From Omnitrophica WOR_2 bacterium RIFOXYA2_FULL_38_17 (GTDB lineage: Bacteria > Omnitrophota > Gorgyraeia > Zapsychrales > Zapsychraceae), in contig MHHG01000027.1 in the NCBI GenBank assembly GCA_001805965.1, forward strand, positions 477-64,476: 64,000 bases of DNA, in the 5' to 3' direction. This document shows positions 29,092 to 64,000 of this stretch, in pieces (the stretch's first letter is position 1; every line of letters begins with the position of its first letter). A model generated the notes under the pieces. The model did no database searches, was not told where the DNA came from, and saw only the letters and a program-made list of their open reading frames with translations. The position numbers and the translations under genes were made by a program.

Positions 29092-29114
29092 AAAGCATTC
29101 CTTGCTAACATATA

Positions 29115-29197: not shown

Positions 29198-29217
29198 TAA
29201 AATAATAATCACAAAAA

Positions 29218-29288: not shown

Positions 29289-29293
29289 AAAAA

Positions 29294-35698: not shown

Positions 35699-35836
35699 TT
35701 ATTTGGTTAACTGTTTTCGACCTTTAGCGCGGCGCCGATTAAGAACTTCTTGACCATCGCTAGTTTGCATTCTTTTTCGAAAGCCGTGCGCTCTTTTGCC
35801 TTTTATATTTGTAGGTGTCTTTAAATGCTTTTTCAT
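35699..35836 (-). CDS. rpmH: 50S ribosomal protein L34
   Basis: The minus-strand 45-aa [48 protein letters not shown] matches L34. It is under 60 aa, so absent from the ORF track. Confidence 0.85.
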
Positions 35837-37769: not shown

Positions 37770-37911
37770 TTAAGTGTTTGTATGCAAGATTTTAACAGCC
37801 AAATTGTTCTTAAATAATTGAAATATAATCACTTTACACCTTGTTCGAATTATTAACAGGTACTACGTATACGATTACTATTTAGATCTTTAACTTAGTT
37901 ATAGGAAGGAA

Positions 37912-39009
37912 ATGAATAAGATGAAACTAAAAATGAAAAGAGATGATCTCCTAATAGGTATTCAAACTGTACAGAATGTTGTATCGAGTAAAGCAACACT
38001 ACCTATTCTATCTAATGTATTATTAGAGATTAGCAATAATATTCTGAAATTAAATGCAACAGATTTGGATATTGGGATTTCCTGTGCAATACCTGTGGAA
38101 TCTATTGAAGAAGGAGCAATAACTATTCCTGCAAAAAGATTTAGCGATATAATTAAAGAATTGCCTGTTGGGGATGTCAATATTTATGCAAAGAAAAACA
38201 ATCAAATTGATATTGAAGGAAAAAATTGTAGATTTAAGTTGAATGGTCTTCCAAAAGAGGAATTTCCAAAATTTCCAGAATTTAAAGACAATGAGATGAT
38301 CAGAATTCAACAGGCAGATCTAAAAGAAATGTTTAAATTAACCTCTTTTGCCGCGTCTCATGAGGAATCAAGGTATGTTTTAAATGGAGTTTTAATTGAA
38401 TTATCAGATGACCTTATAAGAATAGTTGCAACTGATGGTAGAAGATTGGCGAAAATTGAAAAAAAATTAAATTCTTCTATTAAAAAAGAGGTTAGTGTTA
38501 TTATTCCAATAAAAGCAGTGCAGGAAATCAACAGAAATCTCAAGGAAGAAGGGGAAGTCTCCTTTATTATAGGTACAAATCAAATTTTGTTCGATATTGA
38601 TGGAGTTTTGATTGCAACCAGGGTAATTGAGGGGGAATTTCCTAATTATAACCAAGTTATTCCAAAACCAATCAAAACAAAGGTCAATGTTAACACAAAA
38701 GATTTTCTTTATACTATTAAAAGGGCAAATTTATTAGCAACACCTGATTTTCAAGCGGTTAAATTCGAGATTTTTAATGATAAAATGGTTGTTTCTAAAC
38801 ATACTCCTGATGTTGGAGAATCGAGAGAAGAAATTCCTATTGAATATACTGGTCCGGAATTTATAGTTGGTTTTAATCCTGTTTTTCTAATTGATTTTTT
38901 AAAAAATATTAATAAAGAAACAATTGGTATTGAATTTTTAGGTCCTGATAAACCCGCAGTTATAAGGATAGATGATTATTTGTATTTAGCCTTACCAATG
39001 AGAATATAG
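37912..39009 (+). CDS. dnaN: DNA polymerase III beta sliding clamp
   Basis: 365 aa with a three-domain beta-clamp pattern. It lies immediately downstream of dnaA. Confidence 0.9.
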   Translation: MNKMKLKMKRDDLLIGIQTVQNVVSSKATLPILSNVLLEISNNILKLNATDLDIGISCAIPVESIEEGAITIPAKRFSDIIKELPVGDVNIYAKKNNQIDIEGKNCRFKLNGLPKEEFPKFPEFKDNEMIRIQQADLKEMFKLTSFAASHEESRYVLNGVLIELSDDLIRIVATDGRRLAKIEKKLNSSIKKEVSVIIPIKAVQEINRNLKEEGEVSFIIGTNQILFDIDGVLIATRVIEGEFPNYNQVIPKPIKTKVNVNTKDFLYTIKRANLLATPDFQAVKFEIFNDKMVVSKHTPDVGESREEIPIEYTGPEFIVGFNPVFLIDFLKNINKETIGIEFLGPDKPAVIRIDDYLYLALPMRI

Positions 39010-39096
39010 TGATTTTTAGCATAATTTGTGCATAAACAACAGGGTAGCCTAGGTGTCAATAGGATTGCAAAATAAAAAAAATAATAAATTGATAGA

Positions 39097-41897
<2,801 letters not shown>

Positions 41898-41944
41898 AAA
41901 AGAGAGTTAAAGATTCAAGAATATAGAGAGAAAGGTGTTTTTTA

Positions 41945-44398
41945 ATGAGAGACTTATCAAATAGAGAAAAGATAGTGCCCGTTTATATAGAAGAAGAGAT
42001 GAAGCAATCATATCTTGCTTATTCTATGAGCGTTATTGTTGGGCGCGCGCTTCCGGATGTGCGGGATGGGTTAAAGCCGGTCCATAGACGAGTTTTATAT
42101 GCAATGAAAGAGCTTAGCCTTGAACACAGCAAGCCGTATAAGAAATGTGCGCGTATTGTCGGTGAGGTATTAGGTAAGTATCATCCTCATGGAGATACTG
42201 CGGTTTATGATACCCTGGTTAGAATGGTGCAGGATTTTTCTTTAAGATATCCTCTTATAGATGGCCAAGGCAACTTTGGATCTATAGACGGAGATTCTGC
42301 TGCTGCTATGCGCTATACGGAGGCCAGGATGGCTTCTATTTCAGGCGAAATGCTGAAAGACATTGATAAAGAAACGGTCAGTTATGCTCCTAACTTTGAT
42401 GCTACATTACAAGAGCCGGTTGTTTTACCGGCAACTTTGCCAAATCTTTTGATAAATGGATCAAGTGGTATAGCTGTAGGAATGGCAACAAATATGCCTC
42501 CACACAACATCTCGGAAGCAGTTGACGCTGCTATTTTTCTTATTGATAACCCTGATGCACTTGTAAAACAATTAAACAAGATAGTTACCGGTCCTGATTT
42601 TCCGACGGGCGGTATTATTTGTGGGCGCCAGGGCATAGTAGATGCTTATAATACAGGCCGCGGCAAAATAATAGTTCGCGCAAAAGCGAACATTGAAAGA
42701 CAAAAAGGCAATAAAGACAGGATCATTATTTCGGAGATACCTTATCAGGTTAACAAGGCAAGATTGATAGAGTCGATCGCAGAGCTAGTGTCAACCAAAA
42801 AAATAGATGGCATTACCGATCTAAGAGATGAGTCCGACAAAGAAGGCATTCGTATAGTTATAGAGTTGCGCAGGGATGTAGAACCGCAAATAATTTTGAA
42901 CTATTTGTTTAAACATACGCAAATGGAAACAACTTTTGGCATTATCAACCTTGCATTGGTTAACAATAGCCCAAAGGTTTTGAATTTAAAACAGATTTTA
43001 GTCCATTTTTTGAACCACAGAAGGATAGTTGTTAGAAAGAGAACAGAGTTTGACCTTGATAAGGCCTTGCGCAGGGCTCATGTTTTGGAAGGATTAAAGA
43101 TAGCACTAGACAATATTAACCAGGTCATTAAAACCATCAGGGAATCGAAAAGTACGCCTCTTGCAAAAGTTGCCTTGATGAAAGGCTTTGGGCTTTCAGA
43201 GATCCAGTCCCAGGCAATCTTAGAAATGCAGTTGCAAAGGTTGACCGCGCTTGAAAGAAACAAGATAGACGAAGAATACAAAGCGCTGCTTAAAGACATA
43301 GAGAATTACCGGGCTATTTTAGAATCTGAAAAAATGATAGATGATATTATTAAAGGAGAGCTTGTTGATATAAAGAAAAAATATGGCGATGAGAGAAGAA
43401 CAGAAATTGCCGGCAAGGCTGAAGAGATTGAAATAGAAGACCTTATCGCCGAGGAAGAAATGGCGATAACCATAAGCAATACCGGCTATATTAAAAGATT
43501 AGCAGTGTCTTCATATCGTAACCAGAAAAGAGGCGGCAAAGGGGTATCTGCAATGACAACAAGAGAAGAGGACTTTGTTAAACATCTATTTATTGCCTCT
43601 TCTAAAGATTATCTTTTGATATTTTCTAATAAAGGGATTGTAAGATGGCTCAAGGTTTATGAAATCCCTGTAGCCTCGCGAAATGCAAAAGGCAAGAATA
43701 TTATCAACCTGTTGTCTCTTGAACAAGATGAAGAAATAAGTTCGATTGTTGCTGTTAAAGAATTTTTTGATGACCAGTTCTTGGTTATGTCGACAGCAAA
43801 GGGTAATATAAAAAAGACAAAATTATCAGCTTTCAGCAATCCTAGAAAAAGCGGAATAGTTGCGATCAGCCTAGATAAAGGGGATCGGCTGATAGGCATT
43901 TCTTTAAGTAATGGAAGGCATGAAATTTTGTTGGCTACAAGAGAAGGAAAGGCGTTGCGGTTTAATGAAAAGCACATTCGCGATATGGGCCGTGCTGCAA
44001 GAGGAGTAAAGGGAATTAATCTGGCTAAGGATGATGAGGTCGTAAGCCTTCAGGTTTTTTCATCAGATATTGGTAAAACTGGAAGCACTTTGTTAACAGT
44101 TTCATCAGGAGGCTTTGCGAAGAGGTCAGATTTTAATGATTATCGGGTACAGGCTAGAGGAGGCAAAGGTATTATTAACTTGAAGGTAACTCCCAAGAAT
44201 GGGAATGTTGTTGGTGTTCTGGCTGTAATGACTGAAGATGAAATCATGACAGTTACAAAGACTGGGATGATAGTTCGCTGCTCTACAAAGGATATTCGTA
44301 AATCAGGCAGAAGCACGCAGGGGGTTAAGCTTATTGTGTTGAAAAGCGGAGATAGGGTCAGCTCTGTTGCGAATGTTGTGGCAAAAGAAGCTGAATAA
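41945..44398 (+). CDS. gyrA: DNA gyrase subunit A
   Basis: The active-site region [10 protein letters not shown] with its catalytic Tyr is present. There is a GyrA-box-containing C-terminal beta-pinwheel. Confidence 0.95.
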
Positions 44399-51327: not shown

Positions 51328-52287
51328 TTGTTTAAAGGGAGGAATTATAACGTGGAAAAAATACGTAAAAGATTTAATTTACTTGCTATATGTCTTGTCT
51401 GTGTCTTTTTCTTTGTAGGGTGTGAACAAATTGCAGCAATTAAAGCATATTTTACCGGCGAAGATGAAGCTGTTGACAAGGCACCGGTTGTAGAGCCTGT
51501 AAAAACTACGGTCGAACAGCCGGCAATGACGCCTGACACGATTGCAAGAGTCGGCAATTGGACAATTACAAGAGATGAATTTAAAGAAAGAGTAAAAGCC
51601 TTAAAGGAAGTTGTTCCTGACTTTGATGTGGATAGCGCAGAAGCAAGAAAGATGGTAATTGATGAGTTAGTTCGTCAGCAGCTTTTAGTTATTGATGCTG
51701 AAAAGACGGGGATAGCAAACAGTAAGGACATCAAAGATGCTGTTGCTGAATTTAGAAGAACTCTTATAGTTAGGGAAGCAGCACAAAAATTGGTAGAAGG
51801 CATTACGGTCACTGACGAAGAGGCTCAAGCTTTTTATGATGAGAATAAAGAGCAGTTGATTCAGCCGCCACAGTTTCATGTAAAAGAGATAGTTGTTCAA
51901 GACAGCACTTTGGCGGAAAAGATAGTCGCTGATTTAGCAAGTGGCGCAGATTTTTCAGAAAAGGCAAAAGAGCATTCAATTAGCACAACAGCAAAAGCCG
52001 GGGGGGATGTTGGCTTTATAGATTCTGTTCCTTTTGAAGCCATGGCTCCGATACTTATGGCTATGACAAAAGGTGAAGTAAGTAAAGTGGTTGCGGCGCC
52101 TACAGGTGAATTGTATATTGTTAAGCTTGAGGATAAGACAGAAGGAAGGCAATTAGAGTTTGCAGAAATAAAGGCCGATATTATTCAGAATCAAACTCTA
52201 TTAAAGCAGCAGCAAAAGTTATTAGAAAAACTTGAAACCTTGCAGAAAGAGATCAAGGTTGAAGTAAATTACGATCTTTTAAAATAA
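51328..52287 (+). CDS. PpiC-type peptidyl-prolyl cis-trans isomerase (parvulin) lipoprotein
   Basis: A lipoprotein signal (LVCVFFFVGC) is present. The C-terminal parvulin domain is FHVKEIVV...GGDVGFI. The start is possibly the GTG at about 51352. Confidence 0.7.
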   Translation: MFKGRNYNVEKIRKRFNLLAICLVCVFFFVGCEQIAAIKAYFTGEDEAVDKAPVVEPVKTTVEQPAMTPDTIARVGNWTITRDEFKERVKALKEVVPDFDVDSAEARKMVIDELVRQQLLVIDAEKTGIANSKDIKDAVAEFRRTLIVREAAQKLVEGITVTDEEAQAFYDENKEQLIQPPQFHVKEIVVQDSTLAEKIVADLASGADFSEKAKEHSISTTAKAGGDVGFIDSVPFEAMAPILMAMTKGEVSKVVAAPTGELYIVKLEDKTEGRQLEFAEIKADIIQNQTLLKQQQKLLEKLETLQKEIKVEVNYDLLK

Positions 52288-52340: not shown

Positions 52341-53249
52341 TTGATGTTTAAGAATGCAGGTTTTTTTACACTGTTTTTGGATGGCAGAACGGAGGACACA
52401 ATGAATCTTGAAAACAAAAAACAGTTTGTTGTTATTCTTATAGCCATTGGGCTTGGTTTAGTTGCTGCGTTTTTAACTAGCCAATATGTCCAAAACAATA
52501 TTAAGGCTCAGACAAAGGCCTTGGCGCGAGATTATGGCAAACAAAATGCTGGTTTTGCAAAAGAGATTGAGACCTTAAGAAGCGAGGTCAAAAGACAGCG
52601 TGATGAGATCAAGCAGCTCGAAACAAAGCAAAGCCAATATAAACCAGGAGTTGCAGCGCAGGCTACAACTGAAAAGGTTCAGCCAGTTGTTCAGATGGAT
52701 TCTTTTTCAGTGAGAACGCCTCCTGGAAAACGAGCAGTTACTATTTTAGTTGATTCTCTATCGGCTGTTGGAGGGCTTATTAATCCAGGAGACTTCGTTG
52801 ATATTATCGGTGAGATAAAGATACCGGAAGAATCCGGTGATGCTAAGTCTGTAAAGGACGTGACCACTGTTTTATTCCAGAATATTCAAGTGCTGGCAGT
52901 TGGAACTAATTTTAAGCCTCTTGGAAGCGCTCCTGCTTATGAAGCACAGCAAAAGGCCAGATCCCTTAACATAACAGTTGCGATAAGTCCAGAAGAGTCA
53001 GGATTGATTGCCTTTGCTCAGGCAAATGGAAAATTACAGCTGACTTTAAGGCCGCCAACGGATGGTGGTTTGCAGCTGCTTCAGGTTGCCTCTTGGGATA
53101 CTTTAGCTGAATATGTTATGGACCACCAGGGAACAGAACTCATGGTTCCTCAAAAGCAAGCAAATATTTTTGAAGCAGATGACCAAGAAAAAGATGAAGT
53201 TCGTCCTTATATCCAGATTTTTAAATCAGGAGCAGAGTCTAATTTTTAG
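52341..53249 (+). CDS. cpaB: Flp pilus assembly protein CpaB/RcpC
   Basis: An N-terminal TM anchor, a SAF-like domain and an RcpC C-terminal domain are present. The probable start is the Met at about 52401 (MNLENKK). Confidence 0.75.
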   Translation: MMFKNAGFFTLFLDGRTEDTMNLENKKQFVVILIAIGLGLVAAFLTSQYVQNNIKAQTKALARDYGKQNAGFAKEIETLRSEVKRQRDEIKQLETKQSQYKPGVAAQATTEKVQPVVQMDSFSVRTPPGKRAVTILVDSLSAVGGLINPGDFVDIIGEIKIPEESGDAKSVKDVTTVLFQNIQVLAVGTNFKPLGSAPAYEAQQKARSLNITVAISPEESGLIAFAQANGKLQLTLRPPTDGGLQLLQVASWDTLAEYVMDHQGTELMVPQKQANIFEADDQEKDEVRPYIQIFKSGAESNF

Positions 53250-53598
53250 AAGGTTTGTGCCTGTATCGTAGAATTGCGTTTTGTTTGATTGTTTCGTGCA
53301 TTGTGGCGCTTATTAATTTATGCAGACAACCTCACTCGGTCATCCTAGGCAAATTAAGCAATTTCCACCGGGAAGCAGTGAGGCGCTGAGAGCGTATAGC
53401 CAGGAAATCTTCTAAAAAAATACAGCCCTTGAGAATATGAACACTTTTTTAAAGGGGATTTTTTTCAATTATAACTTGAGATTTGCGTATAAGTTGTGTT
53501 GTGTTTTATGCGACCGCTTAGAGCCAAGGGGATGATTTTTAATTACAAATCAATCCAAACAAGAAAACTTGTTTTAAAGAAAGTAAGAGATCTAAATT

Positions 53599-55251
53599 AT
53601 GGATATTAAAAGTATTTTTGAAAAAATAAAGTTTGTCGCGCTAGGGGTCGTTTGTGTATCCGTAGCAATTATTTTTGCCTCATCGTTGGCGCAGGCCAAT
53701 GCCCTGGATGATATTTATAAAAATCTTGATACAACGAATGATAATGAGATTTTTATGGTTGTGGGAGAGTTGACGATAGCTAAGGTTACAAATATGACAA
53801 GGCTTTCAATTACAAATCCAGATATTGCTGATATTGTTGAAGCTGACGATAAAGAGATTCTTCTTATAGCAAAACAGCCTGGGCAAACAATACTTTTTGT
53901 CTGGGATGATGCGGGAAAAAGAATGGTTTTTGTTAATGTTCAAGCCGCAGATATGGGAATGCTTGATATGGCCATCCAAAGAATAGATACTCTTTTAAAA
54001 AAGGGAAGAATTGAAGGGATAAAGTTAGAGCCTAATAAAAGAGAAGGCAAGATATTTGTGACAGGTGATCTTGCAGAAGAAAATGAAGAGATGCTTGATA
54101 AGATCTTGGATGGATATGCGGATATTATTGTGAATCTTATAAGGAAAGAAGAGATTCAAGACCTTATTCAAGTAGACATGCAAATGACAGAATTAAACAC
54201 CACTCTTACAAAGAGCTTGGGCATAGATTGGTCTGCTGGAACGAGTGGCGTATCCTTGACATATCCTGAAGAGTTGCCGGAAATGGATGGTACGATAGGT
54301 GACTTTTTTAAGATTGGAGATTTTAGCAGAACATCAATGTTAACAGCAACAGTTAAAGCTTTGTTAGAAAAAGGAGAAGCCAGGGTTCTTTCTCGACCAA
54401 AAGTAGTAGTTATAAGCGGGGAAGAGGCAAGTTTCTTGGTTGGGGGGGAAATCCCTATTAAGACAACAACTTCTTCTGCTGAAGGGACCCAAGAAAATGT
54501 TTCCTTTAAAGAATATGGTATTGGATTAACGATAACGCCGACAATAAAAAAAGAAAAAATAGATATTCAGCTAAATGTTGAGATCAGTGATGTTGCTTCT
54601 GGAACAGGAAACGAAACGTCTTTTTTTACAGAGACAACAACAACGCGAGTTCTTTTAAACAATAAACAAACGATGGTTCTTGCTGGTCTAATCAAAGAGA
54701 ACAGAGGTTCTAGCGTGCGAATGGTTCCTTTTTTTGGGCAAATACCCGTAGTTGGGATGCTTTTTAGGTCTAAAGGAACTAATCCATCAGAGACTGATAA
54801 AGAGCTGGTTATTTCAATGACTCCTACTATTTTAGAGAGAAATCGCAACAATATAGAAGAGGTAAAAGAGGAAAAGGTTGAAGAATATAGAACGACGGCC
54901 ATATATAAACAAAAAGTTTCTTCATCCTCTTCAGTTCCCTACTATTTGGGAATACCAAAAAACATGACTGAGTATGTAAGAAATGTTCAGAAGCAAATTT
55001 CAAAAGCGATTCTTTATCCTCCCGAGGCAAAAAGATATGGGTGGGAAGGAACAGTTAGGATGAATTTGCTGATACTAAAAGATGGAACTCTTGCATATGC
55101 TTTAATTCAAGAATCATCAGGGCATGAGATTATGGATGAAAGTGCTCTAAGGGCGGCAAAAAGACTTGCGCCGTACTCAGGGTTTCCTTCAGATGTAGAC
55201 CTGCAGGAATTGAATATTACTGTTCCAATTGTTTACAGCTTTAAGAAATAA
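53599..55251 (+). CDS. cpaC: Tad/Flp secretin CpaC/RcpA fused to a C-terminal TonB_C domain
   Basis: A signal peptide, BON/N-domain-like region and secretin core (VLSRPKVVVISGEEASFLVGGEIPI...) are present. The last ~100 aa match TonB_C (YPPEAKRYGWEGTVRMNLLILKDGTL...ESSGHEIMDESALRAAKRLAPYSGFP). Confidence 0.8.
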   Translation: MDIKSIFEKIKFVALGVVCVSVAIIFASSLAQANALDDIYKNLDTTNDNEIFMVVGELTIAKVTNMTRLSITNPDIADIVEADDKEILLIAKQPGQTILFVWDDAGKRMVFVNVQAADMGMLDMAIQRIDTLLKKGRIEGIKLEPNKREGKIFVTGDLAEENEEMLDKILDGYADIIVNLIRKEEIQDLIQVDMQMTELNTTLTKSLGIDWSAGTSGVSLTYPEELPEMDGTIGDFFKIGDFSRTSMLTATVKALLEKGEARVLSRPKVVVISGEEASFLVGGEIPIKTTTSSAEGTQENVSFKEYGIGLTITPTIKKEKIDIQLNVEISDVASGTGNETSFFTETTTTRVLLNNKQTMVLAGLIKENRGSSVRMVPFFGQIPVVGMLFRSKGTNPSETDKELVISMTPTILERNRNNIEEVKEEKVEEYRTTAIYKQKVSSSSSVPYYLGIPKNMTEYVRNVQKQISKAILYPPEAKRYGWEGTVRMNLLILKDGTLAYALIQESSGHEIMDESALRAAKRLAPYSGFPSDVDLQELNITVPIVYSFKK

Positions 55252-55307
55252 ATGACACGCCTGTTTAATGTTTGTAACAAAAGAAAAATTGTTGCAGCGG
55301 AGTAATA

Positions 55308-57632
55308 ATGAGTGCAAAAATAATAACTATTTTTAGTAACAAAGGTGGCGTTGGCAAAACGTTTGTTTCTGTTAATATGGCTACGGCCTTGGCCCTTGCA
55401 AAGTATAAAGTTCTTTTGATCGATATGGATTTTCAGGCTGGTCAGGATATGGCAAGAACCATGAACCTGTCTCCAAAGAACTCGATTGTTGATGTTCTGC
55501 AGCAAATAGAAGCAGTTACAGACCATGTCGTTATTAGAAGGTTTTCTGCGCGACATACTTGTGGATTGGACTTTATGGCGGCAGTTAAGAATACCCGTCA
55601 AATAAGTTTAATTACGCCAGACAATATAAAACCATATCTTAGAAAAATCTCAGAAGTATATGACTTTATTCTTATCGACGCAGGAAAAGCTTTCCATGAA
55701 CCACTTATTACAGTGTTCGATTATTCCAACCTTATTTTATTAGTGGCAACTCCGGATATTTTGGCTGTTTATCAAATAAAGTGGTGCCTTGATGTTCTTC
55801 AGAGCCTGCAGTTTCCAATGAAAATGATCAAGCTGCTTTTGAACAGGTCTGAGAGCCGTGGAAGCGTTGCCTGGCAGGAAGTTAAATCTGCACTTACTTG
55901 TGAGATTTTTGGACATGTGCCTTCCGATGGCAAGGCAGTGGGCATTGCTCTTAACAGGGGAATCCCCTGTGTTATAGATAATCCAAAGAGTCATGTTGGA
56001 GAAGCTTTTATCAAGCTAGTTGATGCTTTCCGAAAGGAAAGCAATTTTGTTCCTGCAATGGATGTTGAAAAGATAAGGAGCAAAGAAGAGCTGCCTAAGC
56101 CAGGAGAATTTTGGGCTAAATATGGCATTGCTCAGCAAATGGGTACGGCGCCTTCAGGAAAAGCTTACGCTTCGCAGGAAGATGAAATAAGTATTTTAAA
56201 AAGAAAAATTCATCTAAAGTTGGTTGACAGGCTTAACAAAGAAGGCATTTCTCTAGAGGCTTTAAGCGATCCTGAATCTATACATAAGGTTAAAAAAATG
56301 GCTGAAGGAGTAGTTGGTACTTTGCTTACAGAAGAAGCTGGTGGCAAGATATCTTCACATGAAGAGAGGGTCCGTTTAGTCAGAGATATTGTCAACGAAG
56401 CTTTAGGCTTAGGACCATTAGAAGATCTTTTAGCTGATCCGGATATAACGGATATTATGGTCAATTGTAGAGACGAGATTTATGTTGAAAAGAGCGGAAA
56501 ACTTGTTCTTACTGATTATAGTTTTGTTTCGGAGGACAAGATGAGGGCTATTATTGACAGGATTATTGCTCCTTTAGGTAGAAGAATAGATGAATCCACG
56601 CCGATGGTTGATGCGCGTTTGCCTGATGGCTCAAGAATTAATGCTATCATTCCGCCGCTTTCTCTGCGTGGGCCAATGATAACTATCAGAAAGTTTGGGG
56701 CTGAAAGACTTAATACTTTTGATTTGCTAAATAAATATCATAGCGTGACCAAAGAGATGGTTTTGTTTTTGAATTGTGCTGTTATTGGCCGCAAAAATAT
56801 TATTGTTTCAGGGGGAACAGGTGCGGGTAAAACAACATTGTTAAACGTTGTCTCTGAGTTTATTCCTGATAATGAAAGAATTATAACTATTGAGGACGCG
56901 GCTGAGTTGCGATTAAAAAAAAGCCATTGCGGAAGACTGGAGTCTAGGCCCAGAAACATTGAAGGTAAGGGCGAGGTTACCATTAGAGATTTATTTATTA
57001 ATTGCCTGAGAATGAGGCCTGACCGTATAGTTATCGGTGAGTGCCGTGGCCCTGAAGTTTTAGACATGTTGCAGGCTATGAACACGGGCCATGATGGATC
57101 TTTGACCACATTGCACGCAAATACAACTAGAGACGTTGTTACTCGTATGCACTCAATGATCCTTTTAAGCGGCATTGAATTGCCTGTCAGGGCTATTAAT
57201 GAAATGATCGCTTCAGCTATCGATATTATTGTTCAGATCAATCGTTTTTCAGATGGAACTCGAAAGGTCACACAAATTTCTGAAACTTGTGGCATGGACG
57301 AAGATCACCAGCTGATATTGAAAGATGTTTTTATTTATAATCAAAAAGGGATTGATTTGGATGGGCGTGTCGTTGGAGACTATGAAGCAACAGGCTATGT
57401 TCCGGAAAGCTTCAATGACTTTGTAACGCGAGGGCTGAAAATTGAAAAGAGCCTTTTTGATAAACGTACTATTTATGTTAATACTGATGAAAAAATAGAG
57501 GTTCCTGAAGTCGAGATATTAGCCCCTGAGGAAGTAAAAAAACTAGTTGTTGGACAATCTAAAACAGTGCAACCTAATGCTCAGCCTAAACAGGCTCAGC
57601 CGCCTACTCTGCCGCCAAAGCCGGCGGAGTAG
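55308..57632 (+). CDS. Fused Tad ATPases: CpaE/TadZ-like ParA-family ATPase + CpaF/TadA secretion ATPase
   Basis: The N-terminus starts with a deviant Walker A (FSNKGGVGKTFVS, ParA/MinD type). The middle region carries the CpaF N-domain (GLGPLEDLLADPDITDIMVNCRDEIYVE). The C-terminal half is a VirB11/TadA-type ATPase with Walker A GGTGAGKTTLLN, Asp/His boxes, and a Pro/Gln-rich tail. Confidence 0.85.
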   Translation: MSAKIITIFSNKGGVGKTFVSVNMATALALAKYKVLLIDMDFQAGQDMARTMNLSPKNSIVDVLQQIEAVTDHVVIRRFSARHTCGLDFMAAVKNTRQISLITPDNIKPYLRKISEVYDFILIDAGKAFHEPLITVFDYSNLILLVATPDILAVYQIKWCLDVLQSLQFPMKMIKLLLNRSESRGSVAWQEVKSALTCEIFGHVPSDGKAVGIALNRGIPCVIDNPKSHVGEAFIKLVDAFRKESNFVPAMDVEKIRSKEELPKPGEFWAKYGIAQQMGTAPSGKAYASQEDEISILKRKIHLKLVDRLNKEGISLEALSDPESIHKVKKMAEGVVGTLLTEEAGGKISSHEERVRLVRDIVNEALGLGPLEDLLADPDITDIMVNCRDEIYVEKSGKLVLTDYSFVSEDKMRAIIDRIIAPLGRRIDESTPMVDARLPDGSRINAIIPPLSLRGPMITIRKFGAERLNTFDLLNKYHSVTKEMVLFLNCAVIGRKNIIVSGGTGAGKTTLLNVVSEFIPDNERIITIEDAAELRLKKSHCGRLESRPRNIEGKGEVTIRDLFINCLRMRPDRIVIGECRGPEVLDMLQAMNTGHDGSLTTLHANTTRDVVTRMHSMILLSGIELPVRAINEMIASAIDIIVQINRFSDGTRKVTQISETCGMDEDHQLILKDVFIYNQKGIDLDGRVVGDYEATGYVPESFNDFVTRGLKIEKSLFDKRTIYVNTDEKIEVPEVEILAPEEVKKLVVGQSKTVQPNAQPKQAQPPTLPPKPAE

Positions 57633-57650
57633 CTATAATCCTTTCAAGTA

Positions 57651-57995
57651 TTGAGAATACTCAATAAAACAAAACAGAACACAATAGCAGATAAGGCCCT
57701 TCTTGCAGATAATTTTTTAACTAGAATGGTTGGGCTCCTTGATCGAAAGTCTTTGAAAGAAGGAGAAGCTCTGGTTATTACCAGGTGTAATTCTATTCAT
57801 ATGTTTTTTATGAAATTTGCCATTGATGCTGTTTTTGTTAGCAAAGAGAACATAGTTGTTGGTCTAGTTCAAGATATCAAGCCATTTCAGCTCAGCCGCA
57901 TTTATTTTAAGTCTAGCTATGTTGTAGAGCTGCCATCCAGCACAATATTTAGATTAGGAATTGCTATTGGCGATCAATTAGCAATCTTAAGCTAA
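57651..57995 (+). CDS. DUF192-family protein
   Basis: 114 aa. The DUF192/COG1430 pattern matches ...RMVGLLDRKSL.EGEALVI..CNSIHMFFMKFAIDAVFV...VVELPSSTIFRLGIAIGD. Confidence 0.55.
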   Translation: MRILNKTKQNTIADKALLADNFLTRMVGLLDRKSLKEGEALVITRCNSIHMFFMKFAIDAVFVSKENIVVGLVQDIKPFQLSRIYFKSSYVVELPSSTIFRLGIAIGDQLAILS

Positions 57996-58025
57996 TCAAT
58001 GTCCAAAAAAAACACAATCTTTTAA

Positions 58026-58051
58026 CTAAAGCTTTTTTATTGTGATATACT
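58026..58051 (+). promoter_or_regulatory. Promoter element of the 674-aa gene, shared with the flp array (CTAAAGCTT...TATTGTGATATACT, extended -10 TGnTATACT)
   Basis: Near-identical to 60295-60318 upstream of the flp array. Both end in TGATATACT, an extended -10. Confidence 0.5.
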
Positions 58052-58143
58052 GAAAATGCATTAATGTCCAATGTGCGTAAAACAATAGATTTCTATTAGA
58101 TTGGACATTGTTGAGTTGTTTAACTATTGCAAAGGGATAAAGT

Positions 58144-60168
58144 ATGGGAGTAGTCCACAAATTGAGAAAGGAAGTTTTTGACTTTATTATCAACCAGAAG
58201 AAGGAAGATCCCTCTCTTAGTTGTCGACAAATATCAGATCTTATAAGCAGTAAGTTTGAAATTAAAGTATCAAAGTCTTCAGTTAACTCTGTTTTAAAAA
58301 GCACTCAGTTAAGCAGTTCAGTGGGAAGACGGGTCCTAAAAAAAGCGATGTCTAAAAAATTCCAAATTCCTCAACAAAAGAAACAACAATTACTAGAGAG
58401 CATTTCAACCCTTGGTTTTACCTTTGACCATAAGGCTACGGCTGAAGAGGATCCGCTGGGAGCGATCAAGGACAATGTCTTTGCAGAAAAGCAGCAGGAA
58501 GAAGGCTTTTCTCTAGAAAAACTTTCTCTGGAGCTTCAGGAGCATGATAGAAAAAAACGCAAGAGCAGGATTTTTTATGATGCAACAAACCAAGAAGTTG
58601 AAGATATAGCAGCGGCTCAAATGACACAAGGAGTACAGGGAGAAAATAAAGAAGCAAGCGCCAATAAAGAGAAGAAGGCATATATTGTTCCCGCTGGTCC
58701 GATATTCTTTGATGAGGAACAATTCCTTTATGATTTAAAAATTGCCAGAGAAGATAAAGAAAAAGAAAAAAATAATAGGCATTTGTATGATAATGCGGGA
58801 GTGGTTTTTTTAAAAGCTGCGCAGATTGATACAGATGGAGAAAATCTTTTGGGAGATCTGTTTAGAAAAAATTCAAAAGGTGTTGTTGTCGATAATTTTA
58901 ATAATATTTGTTCGGGCTTGCTGTTTCTTAAAGCATTTAATATTCAATCTGTAGAGAATATTGAAAAATCAAAGAATGATGCTTTATGGAGATTAAATGG
59001 CTTTAGAAAAGGGTATCCAGGAAGAGAAAATCTTTTTGGGTGGACGCAGAAGATTGATTTTTCAAATCAATTACAATTGGAATATCTTAATGAAAAAGAG
59101 CAGTCTTTAAGCAGTATAAAGGCTTTCAGGATCATCTTTGAGGATGCCACAAGCATTATCCTTGATGCCCAAATGAGGTCTATTTGGAGAGAGCCAGTAC
59201 AGCAAGATTTGTTTTCTTCTTTAAGTAGTGCAATGACGCTTCTTTCCAAAAAACTTATAAGCAATAATGAGTGTTTGGTGATGGATGTTTTAAGAGAAAA
59301 AGGCATCAATAGAACGGATTTTGCAAGAATTCTTGCTTCTTTTTTTGATATTATTGGCAGAAAAATGCGCAAAATTGAAGTATTAAGCGAAAAACAAGAA
59401 ATACTTGCTGAATTTACTCTTATTCCTTCAATTAAGCGCTTTTTTATTGTGGGATTTAGGCCTTATCAGGAGATTTTTAAAGAATATATTTGTAGTATTA
59501 CAGATACTGTTGAATTTCCCTATTATGACAGGCCAAGAGACAGAGTCTTATACTATTCGGAAGTAAATGTTCCATTGGTGGCTTTATTGAAGGATTTTGT
59601 AAGTATTCCTCAAATTCTTCAAGAAGAAAGGCCTTTAAAATGGGTGCTTTTAGGACAACAAAAGAAAAAAGCATCTCAAATAGCTCTTTTGACAAACATG
59701 ACTACAGAGAAAGCAGAAAGTATTATTTCAAAATACTTAACCCGTTGGCCAAGTGCATTTAATAAACAATATATAGAGGAAGGAGACAGAACAGACATTA
59801 ATAGAGAAGAGCTTAATAAAAATCAGAAAGAATATCAATGTTACGCTGGTGACTTTGTTGAAAAGGTGTTTGACAATTTTGGAGATATTTTTAACGATTA
59901 CATTTTAACCCTGCATAAGTATTGTTTAGATAAATATTTTCCAAAACAAAAAAGTGAAATTGACATAAAAACTATGGTGTCAATATTTTATGGATTGCAG
60001 GGTTTTGTAAGGGAAAGTTATGATCAATTAATTGTTACAATTTTGATACCTCAAGGGTACAATTTCCTTGATATCTTGGAATTTGCCATTAGTAGAGTAA
60101 ATGACAGACACTTAGTAACAAAGGATGGCAGAGGTATTTATGTAAGTGCTGAAAAAGTAAAAGCTTAG
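58144..60168 (+). CDS. Hypothetical 674-aa cytoplasmic protein (possible N-terminal HTH), embedded in the Tad locus
   Basis: A long ORF with a good SD (AAAGGGATAAAGTATG) and no TM or signal peptide. The first ~60 aa look HTH-like (SLSCRQISDLISSKFEIKVSKSSVNSVLKS). No recognisable catalytic motif. Confidence 0.6.
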   Translation: MGVVHKLRKEVFDFIINQKKEDPSLSCRQISDLISSKFEIKVSKSSVNSVLKSTQLSSSVGRRVLKKAMSKKFQIPQQKKQQLLESISTLGFTFDHKATAEEDPLGAIKDNVFAEKQQEEGFSLEKLSLELQEHDRKKRKSRIFYDATNQEVEDIAAAQMTQGVQGENKEASANKEKKAYIVPAGPIFFDEEQFLYDLKIAREDKEKEKNNRHLYDNAGVVFLKAAQIDTDGENLLGDLFRKNSKGVVVDNFNNICSGLLFLKAFNIQSVENIEKSKNDALWRLNGFRKGYPGRENLFGWTQKIDFSNQLQLEYLNEKEQSLSSIKAFRIIFEDATSIILDAQMRSIWREPVQQDLFSSLSSAMTLLSKKLISNNECLVMDVLREKGINRTDFARILASFFDIIGRKMRKIEVLSEKQEILAEFTLIPSIKRFFIVGFRPYQEIFKEYICSITDTVEFPYYDRPRDRVLYYSEVNVPLVALLKDFVSIPQILQEERPLKWVLLGQQKKKASQIALLTNMTTEKAESIISKYLTRWPSAFNKQYIEEGDRTDINREELNKNQKEYQCYAGDFVEKVFDNFGDIFNDYILTLHKYCLDKYFPKQKSEIDIKTMVSIFYGLQGFVRESYDQLIVTILIPQGYNFLDILEFAISRVNDRHLVTKDGRGIYVSAEKVKA

Positions 60169-60288
60169 GTTGTTTGACGGGAAAATAATAAAAAAGCTGT
60201 TGTCACTAGCTGTTTTTCGGTTTATATTTATTGTTAGTGAATTGGTTTTTTTACATTTATTAGTGTCTAAAAAAATAAACAGGTTCTA

Positions 60289-60318
60289 TTGACACTAAAG
60301 CTTGTATTATGATATACT
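60289..60318 (+). promoter_or_regulatory. Predicted sigma70-type promoter of the flp pilin array (TTGACA-n18-TGaTATACT)
   Basis: A -35 TTGACA at 60289-60294 and an extended -10 TG-a-TATACT at 60310-60318. It is followed by a ~270-nt leader before the first pilin ATG. Confidence 0.55.
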
Positions 60319-60590
60319 TTTGTTACATATTGGATAAACAGAATATTGTTTTGTAGTCTGTTCAATATTGATATAACGCTTTTTGACAGAATAGTTTCGA
60401 GTTAATACACCGTTTAGGTGTTTTATTCTTCTGCTTTTGGGATAGACCGGAGACACGGTGGTCAAAAGTAGAGGAGCCGAAAAGTTCGGCAATAGAGTCC
60501 CGGGAATTCGATTCAGTGTTTAGCAAGAATGGGGCAAAGTTTATCTGTTGCACATGTTAGGTAGTTGCGGTATGGCGAGGAACAAAAAAA

Positions 60591-60746
60591 ATGAAAAAAT
60601 GGAATCATAAAGGTCAAAATCTAATTGAATATGCCATGGTCGCAGCTTTAATTTCCGTAGCAGTTGTTGCTATGAGTACCTACGTGTATAGGTCAGTTCA
60701 GGCCACCCAGCAGGTAATACAAGAAGAATTCAAAGCATCACAATAA
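60591..60746 (+). CDS. flp: Flp-family type IVb prepilin (short, canonical; likely major pilin)
   Basis: 51 aa: MKKWNHKG|QNLIEYAMVAALISVAVVAMSTYVYRSVQ... It has the Flp G/XXXXEY processing motif and a single hydrophobic helix. It is under 60 aa, so not in the ORF track. Confidence 0.75.
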   Translation: MKKWNHKGQNLIEYAMVAALISVAVVAMSTYVYRSVQATQQVIQEEFKASQ

Positions 60747-60889
60747 TATTTACGCGAGAAAAGACGAACAGATAATAATTTCTGTGTCATTGCTTGCGTA
60801 AGGCTTAAAAATTAGTGTATTTTTAGGCTTAATTAAGCAAAAACCCTTGTTTAGTAACAGGGATTGTTATTATCGAAGGAGGATAAATA

Positions 60890-61120
60890 ATGCTTAAAAG
60901 GATGATTCATAAAACATCTGGCAAAATGAAAAGAGGCCAGAGCACAGTAGAGTACATTATTTTGATAGCTGCTGTTTTAGCCGCTCTCATTATTTTCTTA
61001 GGACCAGGAGGGCCATTCCAGACTGCATTTAACACAACAATCAACTCTGGTACAGATGGTATGGAAGACATGGCAGACAGATTAGCTGGTTCAAGACCTG
61101 CTGCTAACAGTACCCCTTAA
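60890..61120 (+). CDS. Flp-family prepilin paralog 2 (76 aa)
   Basis: MLKRMIHKTSGKMKRG|QSTVEYIILIAAVLAALIIF. A strong SD GAAGGAGG precedes it. Confidence 0.75.
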   Translation: MLKRMIHKTSGKMKRGQSTVEYIILIAAVLAALIIFLGPGGPFQTAFNTTINSGTDGMEDMADRLAGSRPAANSTP

Positions 61121-61179
61121 TCAGGAGAATAAGAAGGAATCCAGTTATTTGGAGAAGTTAAAATTAGGAGGTAAAATCA

Positions 61180-61542
61180 ATGCTTAGAAAATTGATTAAA
61201 AATAAAAAAGCGCAAAACACAGCCGAGTATGCAATTTTGATATCTCTGGTTGTTGCTGGTATTATTGCCATGCAGACTTATGCTCAAAGAGCATTGCAGG
61301 CAAGAGTTCGTGATGCCGCACAGCATCTTGCTACACAAACCAATGGTTTAGGCAACACAGTACAATATGAACCTTATTATTTATCAACTGATTATAACAT
61401 TATTCGGGATGAAACTATGACCGAAAGTTATGACTCAGATGCTATTTTGAAAGGTGAAAATTCTACTAGAACAAGGCAAGAGGGTGGTCGTCAGACAACT
61501 TCTTACGATACATCAGTTGCTGGTATTCAAAACGGTCTCTAA
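61180..61542 (+). CDS. Flp-like prepilin paralog 3 with extended C-terminal tail (120 aa)
   Basis: ...KKA|QNTAEYAILISLVVAGIIAMQTYAQRALQARVRDAAQ, with Ala at -1. The Ser/Thr/Tyr/Asp-rich tail contains YEPYY. SD is AGGAGG. Confidence 0.7.
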   Translation: MLRKLIKNKKAQNTAEYAILISLVVAGIIAMQTYAQRALQARVRDAAQHLATQTNGLGNTVQYEPYYLSTDYNIIRDETMTESYDSDAILKGENSTRTRQEGGRQTTSYDTSVAGIQNGL

Positions 61543-61612
61543 TAGTAGACCTGATTGGTTAGTAACATAAGAAGTGCTCTTTAGAAGAGGTAAAATTAAG
61601 GAGGCTAAAACA

Positions 61613-61942
61613 ATGTTTGAATATTTAAATAAAAGAAGAAAGAAAGGCCAGAGCACGCTAGAATATGCAATTTTGATTATCATTATCATAGGCGCTCTAG
61701 TCTCAATTCAGGTCTACATAAAGAGAGGTATTCAAGGTCGCTTAAAAGGTGCGGCTGATGATATCGGAGAACAATTTTCCCCTGGAAACACAAATGTGCA
61801 AAAAACAGTAAGAACTATAAGTTATACATCAGATACCAATATTGGTGGTGTTGTAACTTCAGCGTTACTTAACGACGAAGAAACAGTTACCCAAGGAACT
61901 TCAAGAATTGCTAATGTTGAGCAAGAATATTGGGGAAGTTAA
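61613..61942 (+). CDS. Flp-like prepilin paralog 4 with extended C-terminal tail (109 aa)
   Basis: The start is taken at ATG 61613 after SD AAGGAGG. MFEYLNKRRKKG|QSTLEYAILIIIIIGALVSIQVYIKRGIQGRLKGAADDIGEQF. Confidence 0.7.
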   Translation: MFEYLNKRRKKGQSTLEYAILIIIIIGALVSIQVYIKRGIQGRLKGAADDIGEQFSPGNTNVQKTVRTISYTSDTNIGGVVTSALLNDEETVTQGTSRIANVEQEYWGS

Positions 61943-61988
61943 TAAAAGCTGTTTTGTAAAACGTAAGTTCTTAGTGTGACAATCAGAT

Positions 61989-62031
61989 CCGGTTTGCCGA
62001 GAAATATTTTTTCGGCAAACCGGTTTTTTTT
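61989..62031 (+). terminator. Strong intrinsic terminator after pilin paralog 4
   Basis: CCGGTTTGCCGA-gaaatatttttt-TCGGCAAACCGG followed by TTTTTTTT. Confidence 0.85.
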
Positions 62032-62237
62032 GCACAAAGAAAAGATTTATCGATGTTTGTTTGTGATTAAATTTTTTGGTAAAATAACGCAAAAAAGACA
62101 AAAAGGGTTTCCGTAAGTTTATGGTAGTGTTAGTTTTGTACGTTTGAAAAATCAATCCCAGCTCTATTCATTTACATAAAAATAATGTATACTTATTGTA
62201 TGAGTCTTAAAATTATTTAAAAAGGGGCGAGTTTGTT

Positions 62238-62621
62238 ATGCTAAGGATTGTTAAGAATAATAGAGCTCAGGCGGTAGTCGGCGAATATGTTATAGTGTTT
62301 TTTATTGCCATCGGAGTTATTACAGCAATGAGCACTTATTTTCAAAGAGTTGTTCAGGGCAGAATTTATGATGCCAGAGATGCAATGGTCAGTCTTACAA
62401 GAAATCAATCAGCAGGATATTTTAACGGCAACATTTTTTTTCATTATGAGCCCTATTATCAAAATACTGATTCAGAAACCTATCGCAGTCTTATTTCGAG
62501 AACTAGTCTTGTCGAGGGGGGGACCAGTGGCATTTACAGGGTCGAATATGATGATCTTTCAAGGATAACTAGCACAAGTGTGACTAAGCCGCCAAGGGAT
62601 GCAGATAAGGAATATGAATAG
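62238..62621 (+). CDS. Flp-like prepilin paralog 5 with extended C-terminal tail (127 aa)
   Basis: MLRIVKNNRA|QAVVGEYVIVFFIAIGVITAMSTYFQRVVQGRIYDARD. The tail contains HYEPYY and resembles paralog 3. Confidence 0.7.
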   Translation: MLRIVKNNRAQAVVGEYVIVFFIAIGVITAMSTYFQRVVQGRIYDARDAMVSLTRNQSAGYFNGNIFFHYEPYYQNTDSETYRSLISRTSLVEGGTSGIYRVEYDDLSRITSTSVTKPPRDADKEYE

Positions 62622-62642
62622 CAAATTAGTCTAGAGGGAAGA

Positions 62643-62996
62643 ATGTTTAAAGGGAATTTACAATTTTGGAAAAATAATAAAGCTCAAAGCATTCTAGAGT
62701 ATTCATTGATCATAGGAATAGTGACGGTGATTTTTTTTAATATGGGGACATTTCTTAAAAGAGGCACGCAGGGGATGATTAAGACGATTGCTGATCAAAT
62801 CGGAGATCAAAGGAATGGTGACCAGATTTTTGATGTTGAAGAAGGCTTTATGGTAAATGCTTTTATTGACACTGATGCCACGACAGAAAAAACAAGAGGG
62901 GAAGATGCCGGTGTCGTAACGCATTATTATAATGATAGGATGCACTCTGAGTCAACGACTGAAACACTCTTAGGCTTTCAGGAAGAAGAAGATTAA
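62643..62996 (+). CDS. Flp-like prepilin paralog 6 with extended C-terminal tail (117 aa)
   Basis: MFKGNLQFWKNNKA|QSILEYSLIIGIVTVIFFNMGTFLKRGTQGMIKTIADQIGDQ. It ends with an acidic C-terminus. Confidence 0.7.
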   Translation: MFKGNLQFWKNNKAQSILEYSLIIGIVTVIFFNMGTFLKRGTQGMIKTIADQIGDQRNGDQIFDVEEGFMVNAFIDTDATTEKTRGEDAGVVTHYYNDRMHSESTTETLLGFQEEED

Positions 62997-63030
62997 AAAA
63001 ATAAAGTTGTTATTGAAACAGGAGAGATTT

Positions 63031-63345
63031 ATGTTTAAAAGAATAAGAAAAGGTCAAACATCAATGGAGTTCCTGATCTTGATGACAGTTATTCTTGCGG
63101 CTTTTTTATCGATAGGGAATTATTTCAAAAGAGGAGTACAGGGAAGATGGAAAACCGCTGTTGATGAATTAGGAGAACAATATGATCCTAGGACGGGAAA
63201 CACTATGCTGGTACATAGGATAATCTCAAATACGGATACGCAGATCATTTCTTTAAACACCACAGGAGGCTGGTGGACGTCGAGAAGAGATATGACGAAT
63301 GTCGTTGAAACTAAATCCGGACATGTTTCCGCTGGGTCATATTAA
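63031..63345 (+). CDS. Flp-like prepilin paralog 7 with extended C-terminal tail (104 aa)
   Basis: The start is taken at ATG 63031 after SD AGGAGAG. MFKRIRKG|QTSMEFLILMTVILAAFLSIGNYFKRGVQGRWKTAVDELGEQYD. Confidence 0.7.
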   Translation: MFKRIRKGQTSMEFLILMTVILAAFLSIGNYFKRGVQGRWKTAVDELGEQYDPRTGNTMLVHRIISNTDTQIISLNTTGGWWTSRRDMTNVVETKSGHVSAGSY

Positions 63346-63388
63346 GTTTATTCTTAATTGTTAAGAATCTGGTGGTTTGAGGGGCGAT

Positions 63389-64000
63389 ATGAAAAAAATT
63401 CATAATAAAGACGATGTTAAAATAAACAAAGAATCTGGCCAGACTGCAATGGAATTGGCGGTTTTTGGTTCAATATTTATTTTTACAATGGGTCTTATTG
63501 TAAGAACTGCTCTTGGTTATGGGTATCAGCAGGGCCAGACTTTGAAGGCGATGAGAATGGCGATGAGAATGTCCTATATGTATTCATCGGGACAGATGGG
63601 CAGCCATGGGGATAACAATGCATCAAGAAATTCAGCAACTGTTGTTTTGATAGAGGACAGGCTGACTTCTTCAAGCGCGAAATATGGTACGGTTGACAGG
63701 GTTCCTTACATGTTGTCGGGGGCAGCCACTCACAGCAGAAATCTTTTTCTTAATATTGATTCCAATGAGGATTTCAGTTTATCAGTTGTTGATTATTGGA
63801 TAAACGGTCAGCGTTTTCCTTTCTCAAATGCGAGGTTTATAAATGTCCCGTTAAACAATGGCAATCCTAACTGGGATCCCATGTGTGCAAGGACAGCTGC
63901 CGGTGCGATCATTGGATGTGTTGCTGTTTACGAAAAAATCCCAAATCACGACGGCATTGATGATTGGGATGCTGGCTGTGACGTATGTTTTGATCTTAAC
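63389..64000 (+). CDS. TadE/TadG-like pseudopilin (N-terminal part; continues beyond window)
   Basis: MKKIHNKDDVKINKESG|QTAMELAVFGSIFIFTMGLIV is a TadE-like N-terminal domain with a Flp-type cleavage motif. The frame is open to the window end (204 codons). Confidence 0.7.
   Translation, partial: MKKIHNKDDVKINKESGQTAMELAVFGSIFIFTMGLIVRTALGYGYQQGQTLKAMRMAMRMSYMYSSGQMGSHGDNNASRNSATVVLIEDRLTSSSAKYGTVDRVPYMLSGAATHSRNLFLNIDSNEDFSLSVVDYWINGQRFPFSNARFINVPLNNGNPNWDPMCARTAAGAIIGCVAVYEKIPNHDGIDDWDAGCDVCFDLN

Follow-up and report, generated by a model that had tools for sequence, protein, structure and literature searches.

Tad-type (type IVc) pilus systems of Bdellovibrio, of Myxococcus and of the phylum Omnitrophota itself are the closest described counterparts of the putative pilus locus analyzed here, which lies at the end of a 64,000-nt stretch of DNA from Omnitrophica WOR_2 bacterium RIFOXYA2_FULL_38_17 (contig MHHG01000027.1). 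This whole stretch is called the window, and locus coordinates are window positions. Omnitrophota are widespread, uncultured and ultra-small, and are thought to live on other cells. The source label of the window-identical fused ATPase of the locus (A2Y03_04570) is Omnitrophica WOR_2 bacterium GWF2_38_59, phylum Candidatus Omnitrophota.

Tad complexes throughout Omnitrophota were reported by Seymour et al. (2023), who group TadB/TadC with Bdellovibrionales and place RcpA of Velamenicoccia with the predatory Stigmatella, Vulgatibacter and Lysobacter. According to the same study, the Tad locus of V. archaeovorus (genome positions 12382–29832, likewise close to the genome start) is expressed when the organism grows together with its prey. 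The West-Roberts et al. 2023 preprint describes a phylum-conserved secretion-system locus with gspD, gspE, gspF, rcpC, a Rotamase_2 peptidyl-prolyl isomerase (PPIase) gene and many small class III signal peptide genes. Both loci are of the same kind as the window cluster by composition; the West-Roberts locus is placed upstream of giant genes, whereas the window cluster, read to just past TadC, showed only a 1,598-aa protein inside the locus. Neither searchable text mentions TonB_C, a ParA fusion, DUF192, a helix-turn-helix (HTH) protein or orthology of pilin positions.

A 2026 preprint on B. bacteriovorus described an "atypical TadZA fusion", in which a ParA/MinD-like TadZ without the N-terminal receiver-like domain (ARD) is connected to TadA through a flexible linker; it also reported that TadV is absent from the tad loci and that Tad is required for prey attachment and invasion. 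The Kil system of Myxococcus comprises 15 pilins, namely a major Flp, two adapter Flps and four tips of TadE/F/G-like proteins, one large and variable. Not every Kil pilin is cut by a locus-encoded peptidase, and the system is used on contact with other cells.

Compared with these systems, the window locus is probably the phylum-typical Tad-like (type IVc) pilus of Omnitrophota, a member of a "predator-type" branch that includes the Bdellovibrio-like Tad, and it resembles Kil. The original prediction of a non-canonical, Tad-type machine was upheld to this extent; its further suggestion of a possibly undescribed variant was not, as the arrangement is ordinary in Omnitrophota, has been coarsely published, and contains a fusion known from Bdellovibrio.

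Gene order and fused proteins across Omnitrophota

A scan of one genome per species identified 124 related loci, 80 of which, all from other species, were fetched; their labels were nearly all Omnitrophota and otherwise generic metagenome-assembled genome (MAG) labels. The open reading frames (ORFs) of these loci were searched with the window proteins to read gene order. The same locus was found in at least six further assemblies (L001–L006), and one of them (L003), 99.9% identical to the window tail, was used to read the genes past the window end. Dozens of species shared the order SurA-like PPIase, CpaB, secretin–TonB_C, ParA–CpaF, DUF192, HTH protein and seven pilins, continued by a large pilin-like protein, a 79-aa pilin, a 1,598-aa Cys-rich protein, another pilin, TadB and TadC. 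Judged by this comparison of ORFs, the architecture is the standard phylum-wide arrangement of Omnitrophota, and nearly all sampled members carry it. An ordinary arrangement in the source lineage had been named beforehand as the result that would speak against a new variant, and the comparison of relatives revealed largely this. A shorter locus sub-type (L061, L062, L067–L072, L077, L079, L081 and L086) contained neither the large pilin nor the giant and had a different pilin-like gene set, sometimes with extra pilins after TadC; it is probably a class-level variant within Omnitrophota.

The genes of the first part of the locus are as follows.

51328–52287, + strand: SurA-like periplasmic PPIase (Rotamase_2 and SurA_N, Pfam), the first conserved gene of the cluster
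52401–53249, + strand: CpaB/RcpC periplasmic alignment protein (RcpC 5.1e-24; TIGR03177 pilus_cpaB 96.6 bits, cut-off 71)
53599–55251, + strand: RcpA-type secretin–TonB_C, a single 550-aa ORF (T2SS-T3SS_pil_N 7.6e-12, Secretin 1.4e-37, TonB_C 2.6e-15)
55308–57632, + strand: TadZA-type motor of 774 aa in one ORF (AAA_31/CbiA/ParA at residues 4–240, 7.6e-19; T2SSE at 366–646, 4.8e-58)
57651–57995, + strand: DUF192 (COG1430) protein (PF02643 1.8e-16), no signal peptide
58144–60168, + strand: HTH protein of 674 aa, with a weak transposase-type HTH match at its N-terminus

The genes and coordinates listed in the original prediction are real, with Pfam scores far beyond chance, and domain searches on the ORFs confirmed RcpC, Secretin, TonB_C, ParA, T2SSE and DUF192; Flp_Fap stayed below threshold and TadE did not match the gene that had been called tadE-like. 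The extent of the locus required correction, since the conserved cluster starts not with cpaB but one gene earlier, with the PPIase gene. A PPIase homolog lay directly 5' of cpaB in 48 of the 48 loci with enough flank (45 by script, and 3 in which it overlaps cpaB by 4 nt).

Both fusions proposed from the sequence proved genuine rather than frameshifted. Among the complete ORFs of the 80 other species, the ATPase was fused in 62/63 and TonB_C was fused to the secretin in 58/59, and both exceptions were split genes adjoining their other halves. It has next to no chance of being correct that the locus is a canonical tad operon disguised by assembly errors or frameshifts of a MAG. The source is indeed a MAG, the ATPase of L001 is split into 519 and 229 aa, and L005 shows other gene-call differences; however, at least four independent same-species assemblies contained the 774-aa and 550-aa ORFs unbroken, and the fused ATPase, whose ParA Walker A is invariant, was 64–74% identical throughout the phylum. 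The same-species assemblies and the ORF counts over 80 species thus led us to reject the frameshift interpretation of the fusions.

In the AlphaFold2 (AF2) model of the fused ATPase, whose confidence was moderate (pLDDT 61.5) and which was used for domain boundaries only, a MinD/ParA-like domain (residues 1–245) is followed by a low-confidence linker of ~40 aa (251–290), a three-helix bundle (290–366), the N- and C-terminal domains of CpaF/TadA (380 to ~700) and a disordered low-complexity tail. These boundaries were consistent with the published TadZA description and with a CpaF match at residues 350–705, where the CpaF structures 8rkd and 9e24 scored 376 bits and the next family 134 bits; MinD (4v03) matched residues 3–234. 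TIGR03819 TadA was the best NCBIfam match of the motor (323.9 bits), under its cut-off of 373. The ParA-like domain begins at residue 4 with its P-loop, which leaves no room for an ARD. Its Walker A motif read KGGVGKT in 115 of 120 homologs, and K12, G13, G14, G16, K17, T18, D39, D41 and D124 were invariant; other fused clusters varied at the Walker A, D39, D41 and D124 positions.

Fused homologs with 64–74% identity bear Omnitrophota names. A search of cluster representatives additionally revealed dozens of divergent clusters (38–45% identity) that matched the fusion end to end, and the motor was 42% identical over its full length to a representative (P0164) whose cluster member P0300 is a Bacteriovoracia protein from a tad locus. 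Top-scoring representatives also included proteins of 950–1,600 aa (P0046 and P0147–P0150) that matched the CpaF part two to four times and appear from these matches to be tandem CpaF–CpaF fusions.

The locus in the Bacteriovoracia MAG encodes an Flp-like protein, four further G/Q...E[YF] pilin-like proteins, an A24 peptidase, RcpC, a plain secretin, the fused ATPase and TadB. The likeness to Bdellovibrio and Bacteriovoracia therefore includes a TadZ without ARD joined by a linker to TadA, the lack of TadV in the B. bacteriovorus tad loci, RcpC, secretin and TadB genes adjoining the ATPase gene, and several G/Q...E[YF] pilin-like genes; the role in the likeness drawn with the Bdellovibrio Tad is attachment to another cell. 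In contrast to the window locus, however, the Bacteriovoracia locus has a secretin without TonB_C and no DUF192 or HTH gene, contains FHA proteins, an RHS protein and the A24 peptidase, and retains SAF in CpaB, for which the window CpaB had no match. The tad genes of B. bacteriovorus are scattered over several loci, whereas those of Omnitrophota form one collinear block of ~19 genes, and the TadZ consensus of B. bacteriovorus at Walker A is K/RGGXGXS/T, compared with the full KGGVGKT in Omnitrophota ParA.

The secretin consists of a signal peptide, an N-domain, the secretin core and a C-terminal TonB_C (residues ~455–550, YP...EG.V motif), the last of which scored 50.6 bits against tonB_Cterm TIGR01352 (cut-off 27.1). 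Its closest solved structures were 8jvb and RcpA (8odn), and literature searches found no published secretin–TonB_C fusion. The cpaB ORF was listed with a TTG start at 52341, and its likely start is ATG 52401. The encoded CpaB has an N-terminal transmembrane (TM) helix, then charged, coiled-coil-like residues (~40–100) at the canonical SAF position, and aligns with the family models in their RcpC half only.

Compared with the canonical Tad/Cpa systems (Aggregatibacter tad, Caulobacter cpa and Pseudomonas rcp-tad), the Omnitrophota locus shares CpaF/TadA, TadB and TadC, CpaB/RcpC, an RcpA-type secretin and G/xxxxEY pilins. It differs in that TadZ is fused and without ARD, the secretin carries TonB_C, and CpaB shows no SAF match; TadD, RcpB and TadV are missing, DUF192, HTH and PPIase genes are added, and ten or eleven pilin-like genes take the place of Flp, TadE and TadF (with or without TadG). 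The TadD, RcpB and TadG families matched no gene of the locus.

The pilin series and the large pilin-like proteins

Seven small ORFs between 60591 and 63345 share a basic leader, the motif [GA]/Q-x-x-x-E-[YF] and a hydrophobic helix.

60591–60746, + strand: pil51 (KG/QNLIEY; mature ~43 aa), Flp_Fap 29.5 bits, below the cut-off of 32.2
60890–61120, + strand: pil76 (RG/QSTVEY), Class_IIIsignal 31.4 bits, cut-off 23.7; conserved second position
61180–61542, + strand: pil120 (KA/QNTAEY), mid-size, pilin-like by N-terminal motif and paralogy; conserved third position
61613–61942, + strand: pil109 (KG/QSTLEY), mid-size pilin-like; the listed ORF starts at GTG 61574
62238–62621, + strand: pil127 (RA/QAVVGEY, with a one-residue register shift), mid-size pilin-like
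62643–62996, + strand: pil117 (KA/QSILEY), mid-size pilin-like
63031–63345, + strand: pil104 (KG/QTSMEF), Class_IIIsignal 24.3 bits, cut-off 23.7; the listed ORF starts at TTG 63007

The proposal of seven tandem flp paralogs was thus correct as to seven prepilin-like ORFs; only two of them are Flp-sized (51 and 76 aa), the other five measuring 104–127 aa, and they belong to orthologous groups in a fixed order. By best match, the order pil51, pil76, pil120, pil109, pil127, pil117 and pil104 was collinear in ~35 species, and this collinearity persisted where the identity of the HTH protein drops to ~25%. Since the positions are collinear across species, the "paralogs" are, on this evidence, old and distinct subunits rather than products of a recent expansion. 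The sole duplicated part of the series was the triplet pil76–pil120–pil109, in a few species (L040, L041 and L058). An extra Flp-sized pilin gene (pil76-like, G/QSTIEY) lies upstream of cpaB in L008, L009, L010 and L012, and is not present in the window.

Orthologs of pil51 occupied the first pilin position in ~45 loci and had Glu5 in 49 of 57 cases, and pil51 was the only one of the seven to touch Pfam Flp_Fap; it is our candidate major pilin, and pil76 may be an adapter or a minor Flp. A further eight to nine pilin-like proteins accompany pil51. The original prediction regarded the pilin set as greatly expanded; what we observed is a series in fixed, collinear order and not a lineage-specific expansion, and in number it compares with the 15 Kil pilins. 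The likeness to the Myxococcus xanthus Kil system lies in the many pilins, a major Flp, short Flp adapters and TadE/F/G-like minor pilins, among them a large variable one that forms a tip, and is drawn from the description of the pilin set. In contrast to the one fixed, ordered series of Omnitrophota, the Kil genes are in several clusters and include four interchangeable tip trios.

Two predicted transcription signals accompany the series.

60289–60318, + strand: promoter-like site (TTGACA-18-TATACT, extended TG; 11/12 matches in a consensus scan), which implies a ~270-nt leader before pil51
61989–62023, + strand: strong intrinsic-terminator-like hairpin (16 pairs, then T8), right after the pil76–pil120–pil109 triplet

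The promoter-like site stands ahead of the first pilin gene, and together with the hairpin behind the triplet it suggests two pilin transcription units, split at 61989–62023. Weak Rfam miRNA matches in the pilin intergenic regions were rejected as chance matches to the terminator hairpin. The spacer between the HTH gene and pil51 (60169–60590, and the same spacer in L007–L086) is long in most species, typically 300–550 nt. It had no Rfam family match in the window and could hold a regulatory leader or binding sites of the HTH protein; short motifs conserved near the pilin start were ACA..AGG.. and GCGATGAGGC-like, the latter probably a ribosome-binding site.

The series continues beyond pil104, first in the window and then, as read in L003, past its end.

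63389–64000, cut by the window end, + strand: large pilin-like protein of 445 aa (N-terminal 204 aa in the window; SG/QTAMEL N-terminus)
past the window end: p79, 79 aa (G/QVLIEF), Pfam TadE 17.3 bits, below the cut-off of 22.9
past the window end: Cys-rich protein of 1,598 aa (KG/QVAIILI N-terminus, no Glu5)
past the window end: p121, 121 aa, pilin-like (A/QAVFEY)
past the window end: TadB (285 aa) and TadC (295 aa), one PF00482 (T2SSF) match each

An unrelated nuclease gene follows. The gene at 63389 had been called tadE-like; its N-terminus (G/QTAMEL) marks it as pilin-like, and the 445-aa protein had no Pfam match, TadE included. A homolog search with its 204-aa N-terminal part matched two fragments.

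Glu5 was retained in every pilin-like family except the 1,598-aa giant, whose orthologs keep the cleavage motif with I or V at +5. The N-terminal ~250 aa of this protein are conserved and the remainder is patchy and variable; it contains 72 Cys residues. Tip subunits of type II secretion systems (T2SS) and type IV pili (T4P), such as GspK, lack Glu5, and by this analogy the 1,598-aa protein is the best candidate for a distal tip.

The expectation that tadB and tadC lie beyond the window was borne out: they are ~5.7 kb past its end, and TadC ends at window-equivalent ~72456. The prepilin peptidase expected in the same place was not found in or near the locus. No Peptidase_A24 (PF01478) occurred among the called genes of L001–L006, and a motif and TM filter detected no multi-TM ORF with GxGDxK in the window or in 86 loci; by Pfam, the membrane ORFs of the window belong to families other than the A24 peptidase.

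The DUF192 and HTH proteins and the genomic setting

The DUF192 gene was present in 71 of the 80 related loci, always between the ATPase and HTH genes. Structure comparison yielded no informative solved relative of DUF192, and literature searches found no paper that links it to a pilus.

The 674-aa protein, previously taken for an orphan, has an N-terminal transposase-type HTH, and its family counts at least 124 loci across genomes of Omnitrophota species; the source names of its homologs are all Omnitrophota or Omnitrophica. It comprises a highly conserved Tc3/paired-type HTH (residues 1–90), a disordered spacer and a ~480-aa alpha/beta domain; for this C-terminal domain, neither Foldseek against the Protein Data Bank (PDB) nor profiles against PDB sequences gave a confident match. 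A comparison with DDE transposases of the IS4/Tn5-like or IS630-like kind, which have an RNase H-like catalytic domain, returned one weak DDE_Tnp_1_4 match among 15 members, and the family showed no conserved DDE triad, D341 being the sole near-invariant acidic residue. The position of the gene inside the locus was fixed in 80 loci. The likeliest role of the protein is that of a DNA-binding regulator specific to the locus, which may have arisen from a transposase. In L073 the HTH gene is inverted in place and the rest of the locus is collinear, which suggests an independent regulatory gene, transcribed alone.

We also considered a horizontally acquired island or mobile element, in which the HTH gene would encode the transposase and DNA uptake or transfer would be the task of the pilus; the title of PMC4322843 indicates that Flp pili can mediate transformation in Micrococcus. 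The fixed gene position and the missing DDE triad argue against this explanation, and the setting of the locus does likewise. The GC content and GC skew of the locus equal those of the surrounding chromosome, the locus lies ~15 kb from dnaA, and its MDH and PPIase neighbors recur in many species; flanking repeats are not needed to explain the data. We regard such an origin as highly improbable.

The interval from gyrA to the locus contains housekeeping genes, and the seven genes upstream of cpaB are, by Pfam, housekeeping genes and the PPIase gene, with no tadB, tadC or tadV among them. The origin region (33849–44398) contains yidC (− strand), dnaA (36435–37769), dnaN, gyrB and gyrA (+ strand); dnaA, dnaN, gyrB and gyrA span 36.4–44.4 kb, and the GC skew switches sign at ~36 kb. 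Long ORFs (at least 150 aa) are nearly all on the − strand left of the origin and all on the + strand right of it, a strong co-orientation with replication. West-Roberts et al. (2023) found such co-orientation in complete Omnitrophota genomes. Elsewhere in the window, a 6S RNA lies at 19798–19950 on the − strand (Rfam RF00013, 55.2 bits; gathering score 46.4).

Proposed assembly and use of the pilus

From the parts and their conservation, which are established here, we infer how the machine may work. The SurA-like chaperone would help the secretin to reach the outer membrane, where this RcpA-type protein would form the channel. Its TonB_C domain may anchor it by binding either peptidoglycan or a partner beta-strand, in analogy with the AMIN domains in PilQ, and so replace the missing TadD/RcpB pilotin, and CpaB would bridge the secretin and the TadB/TadC platform in the inner membrane. 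A single polypeptide would combine a MinD/ParA-like positioning ATPase with the CpaF/TadA motor, which would power assembly of the filament. About ten prepilins ([GA]/Q-x-x-x-E-[YF]) would be processed by a prepilin peptidase whose gene lies elsewhere in the genome; the fiber would be built from the 51-aa Flp-like protein, with the other pilin-like proteins acting in priming, adapter and tip complexes. The exposed tip, which would bind to the surface of host or prey cells, may consist of the 445-aa pilin-like protein together with the Cys-rich protein of 1,598 aa. Regulation of the locus would fall to the HTH protein, and DUF192 may be a cytoplasmic accessory. The machine is most likely used for attachment to host or prey cells, because this role agrees with published lifestyle data and with the kinship to predator Tad systems.

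Several points weigh against a phylum-typical adhesive Tad-like pilus. The machine is known here from its genes, with no filament observed; neither the window nor the 10 kb around the locus in any relative showed a prepilin peptidase, so processing is assumed. Size and position are what mark pil51 as the major pilin, and its Flp_Fap score is under the Pfam cut-off. The case for the 1,598-aa protein as the tip is one of analogy (no Glu5, size and variability), and the anchoring by TonB_C and the regulation by the HTH protein, whose large C-terminal domain had no confident match, are both deduced. Finally, West-Roberts et al. (2023) interpreted the conserved locus as a secretion system that resembles a T2SS and is generally situated ahead of giant genes.

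This last point leads to an alternative, that the locus encodes a secretion or effector-delivery device, either a short Tad-derived pseudopilus that acts as a T2SS-like piston or a Kil-like killer, which exports or presents large proteins including the giants of Omnitrophota. The ATPase is, however, of CpaF type rather than GspE type, scoring 41.6 bits against TIGR02533 (gspE; cut-off 630), and the secretin reached 122.7 bits against gspD (cut-off 351). The platform is split into two single-T2SSF proteins (TadB and TadC), the locus also encodes CpaB and an Flp-like pilin of 51 aa, and none of its genes matched GspC, GspL or GspM. A secretion role is favored by the many minor-pilin-like genes, which are reminiscent of GspH–K, by the large Cys-rich protein inside the operon, by the secretion/pilus genes that flank 13 of 14 giant genes in a 2026 Omnitrophota preprint, and by the proposal that the Tad-like Kil system works with effector delivery. 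Taken together, we consider such a device unlikely, and it is not mutually exclusive with the adhesive pilus.

Within the reading of the locus as a phylum-typical Tad-like pilus, we tentatively raise a further possibility, for which the odds seem rather low: the 1,598-aa protein would be the distal tip, Omnitrophota would present very large surface proteins to hosts or prey by a Tad-like machine, the HTH protein would control the pilin operons as a domesticated transposase, and TonB_C would be a pilotin-free anchor of the secretin. If true, this would tie the giant genes of the phylum mechanistically to adjacent pilus loci.

The fusion, the missing peptidase and the large pilin set all have precedents in Bdellovibrio or Kil. 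Apparently undescribed so far are the TonB_C tail of the secretin, DUF192, the HTH protein and the Glu5-less giant pilin-like protein. The TonB_C secretin, DUF192, the HTH protein, the complete invariant ParA Walker A and the 1,598-aa protein seem to be specific to Omnitrophota. For specialists of type IV filaments, the locus is an informative variant and not a new kind of machine.

For Omnitrophota, the cluster is among the most conserved non-housekeeping loci, with a fused ATPase that is 64–74% identical across the phylum. Added here is a complete parts list, with the fused motor, the TonB_C secretin, about ten fixed pilin-like subunits and the DUF192 and HTH genes, which provides concrete targets in the sole available co-culture, that of V. 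archaeovorus. Because it adjoins the replication origin, the cluster is probably central to the attachment of Omnitrophota to their hosts or prey.

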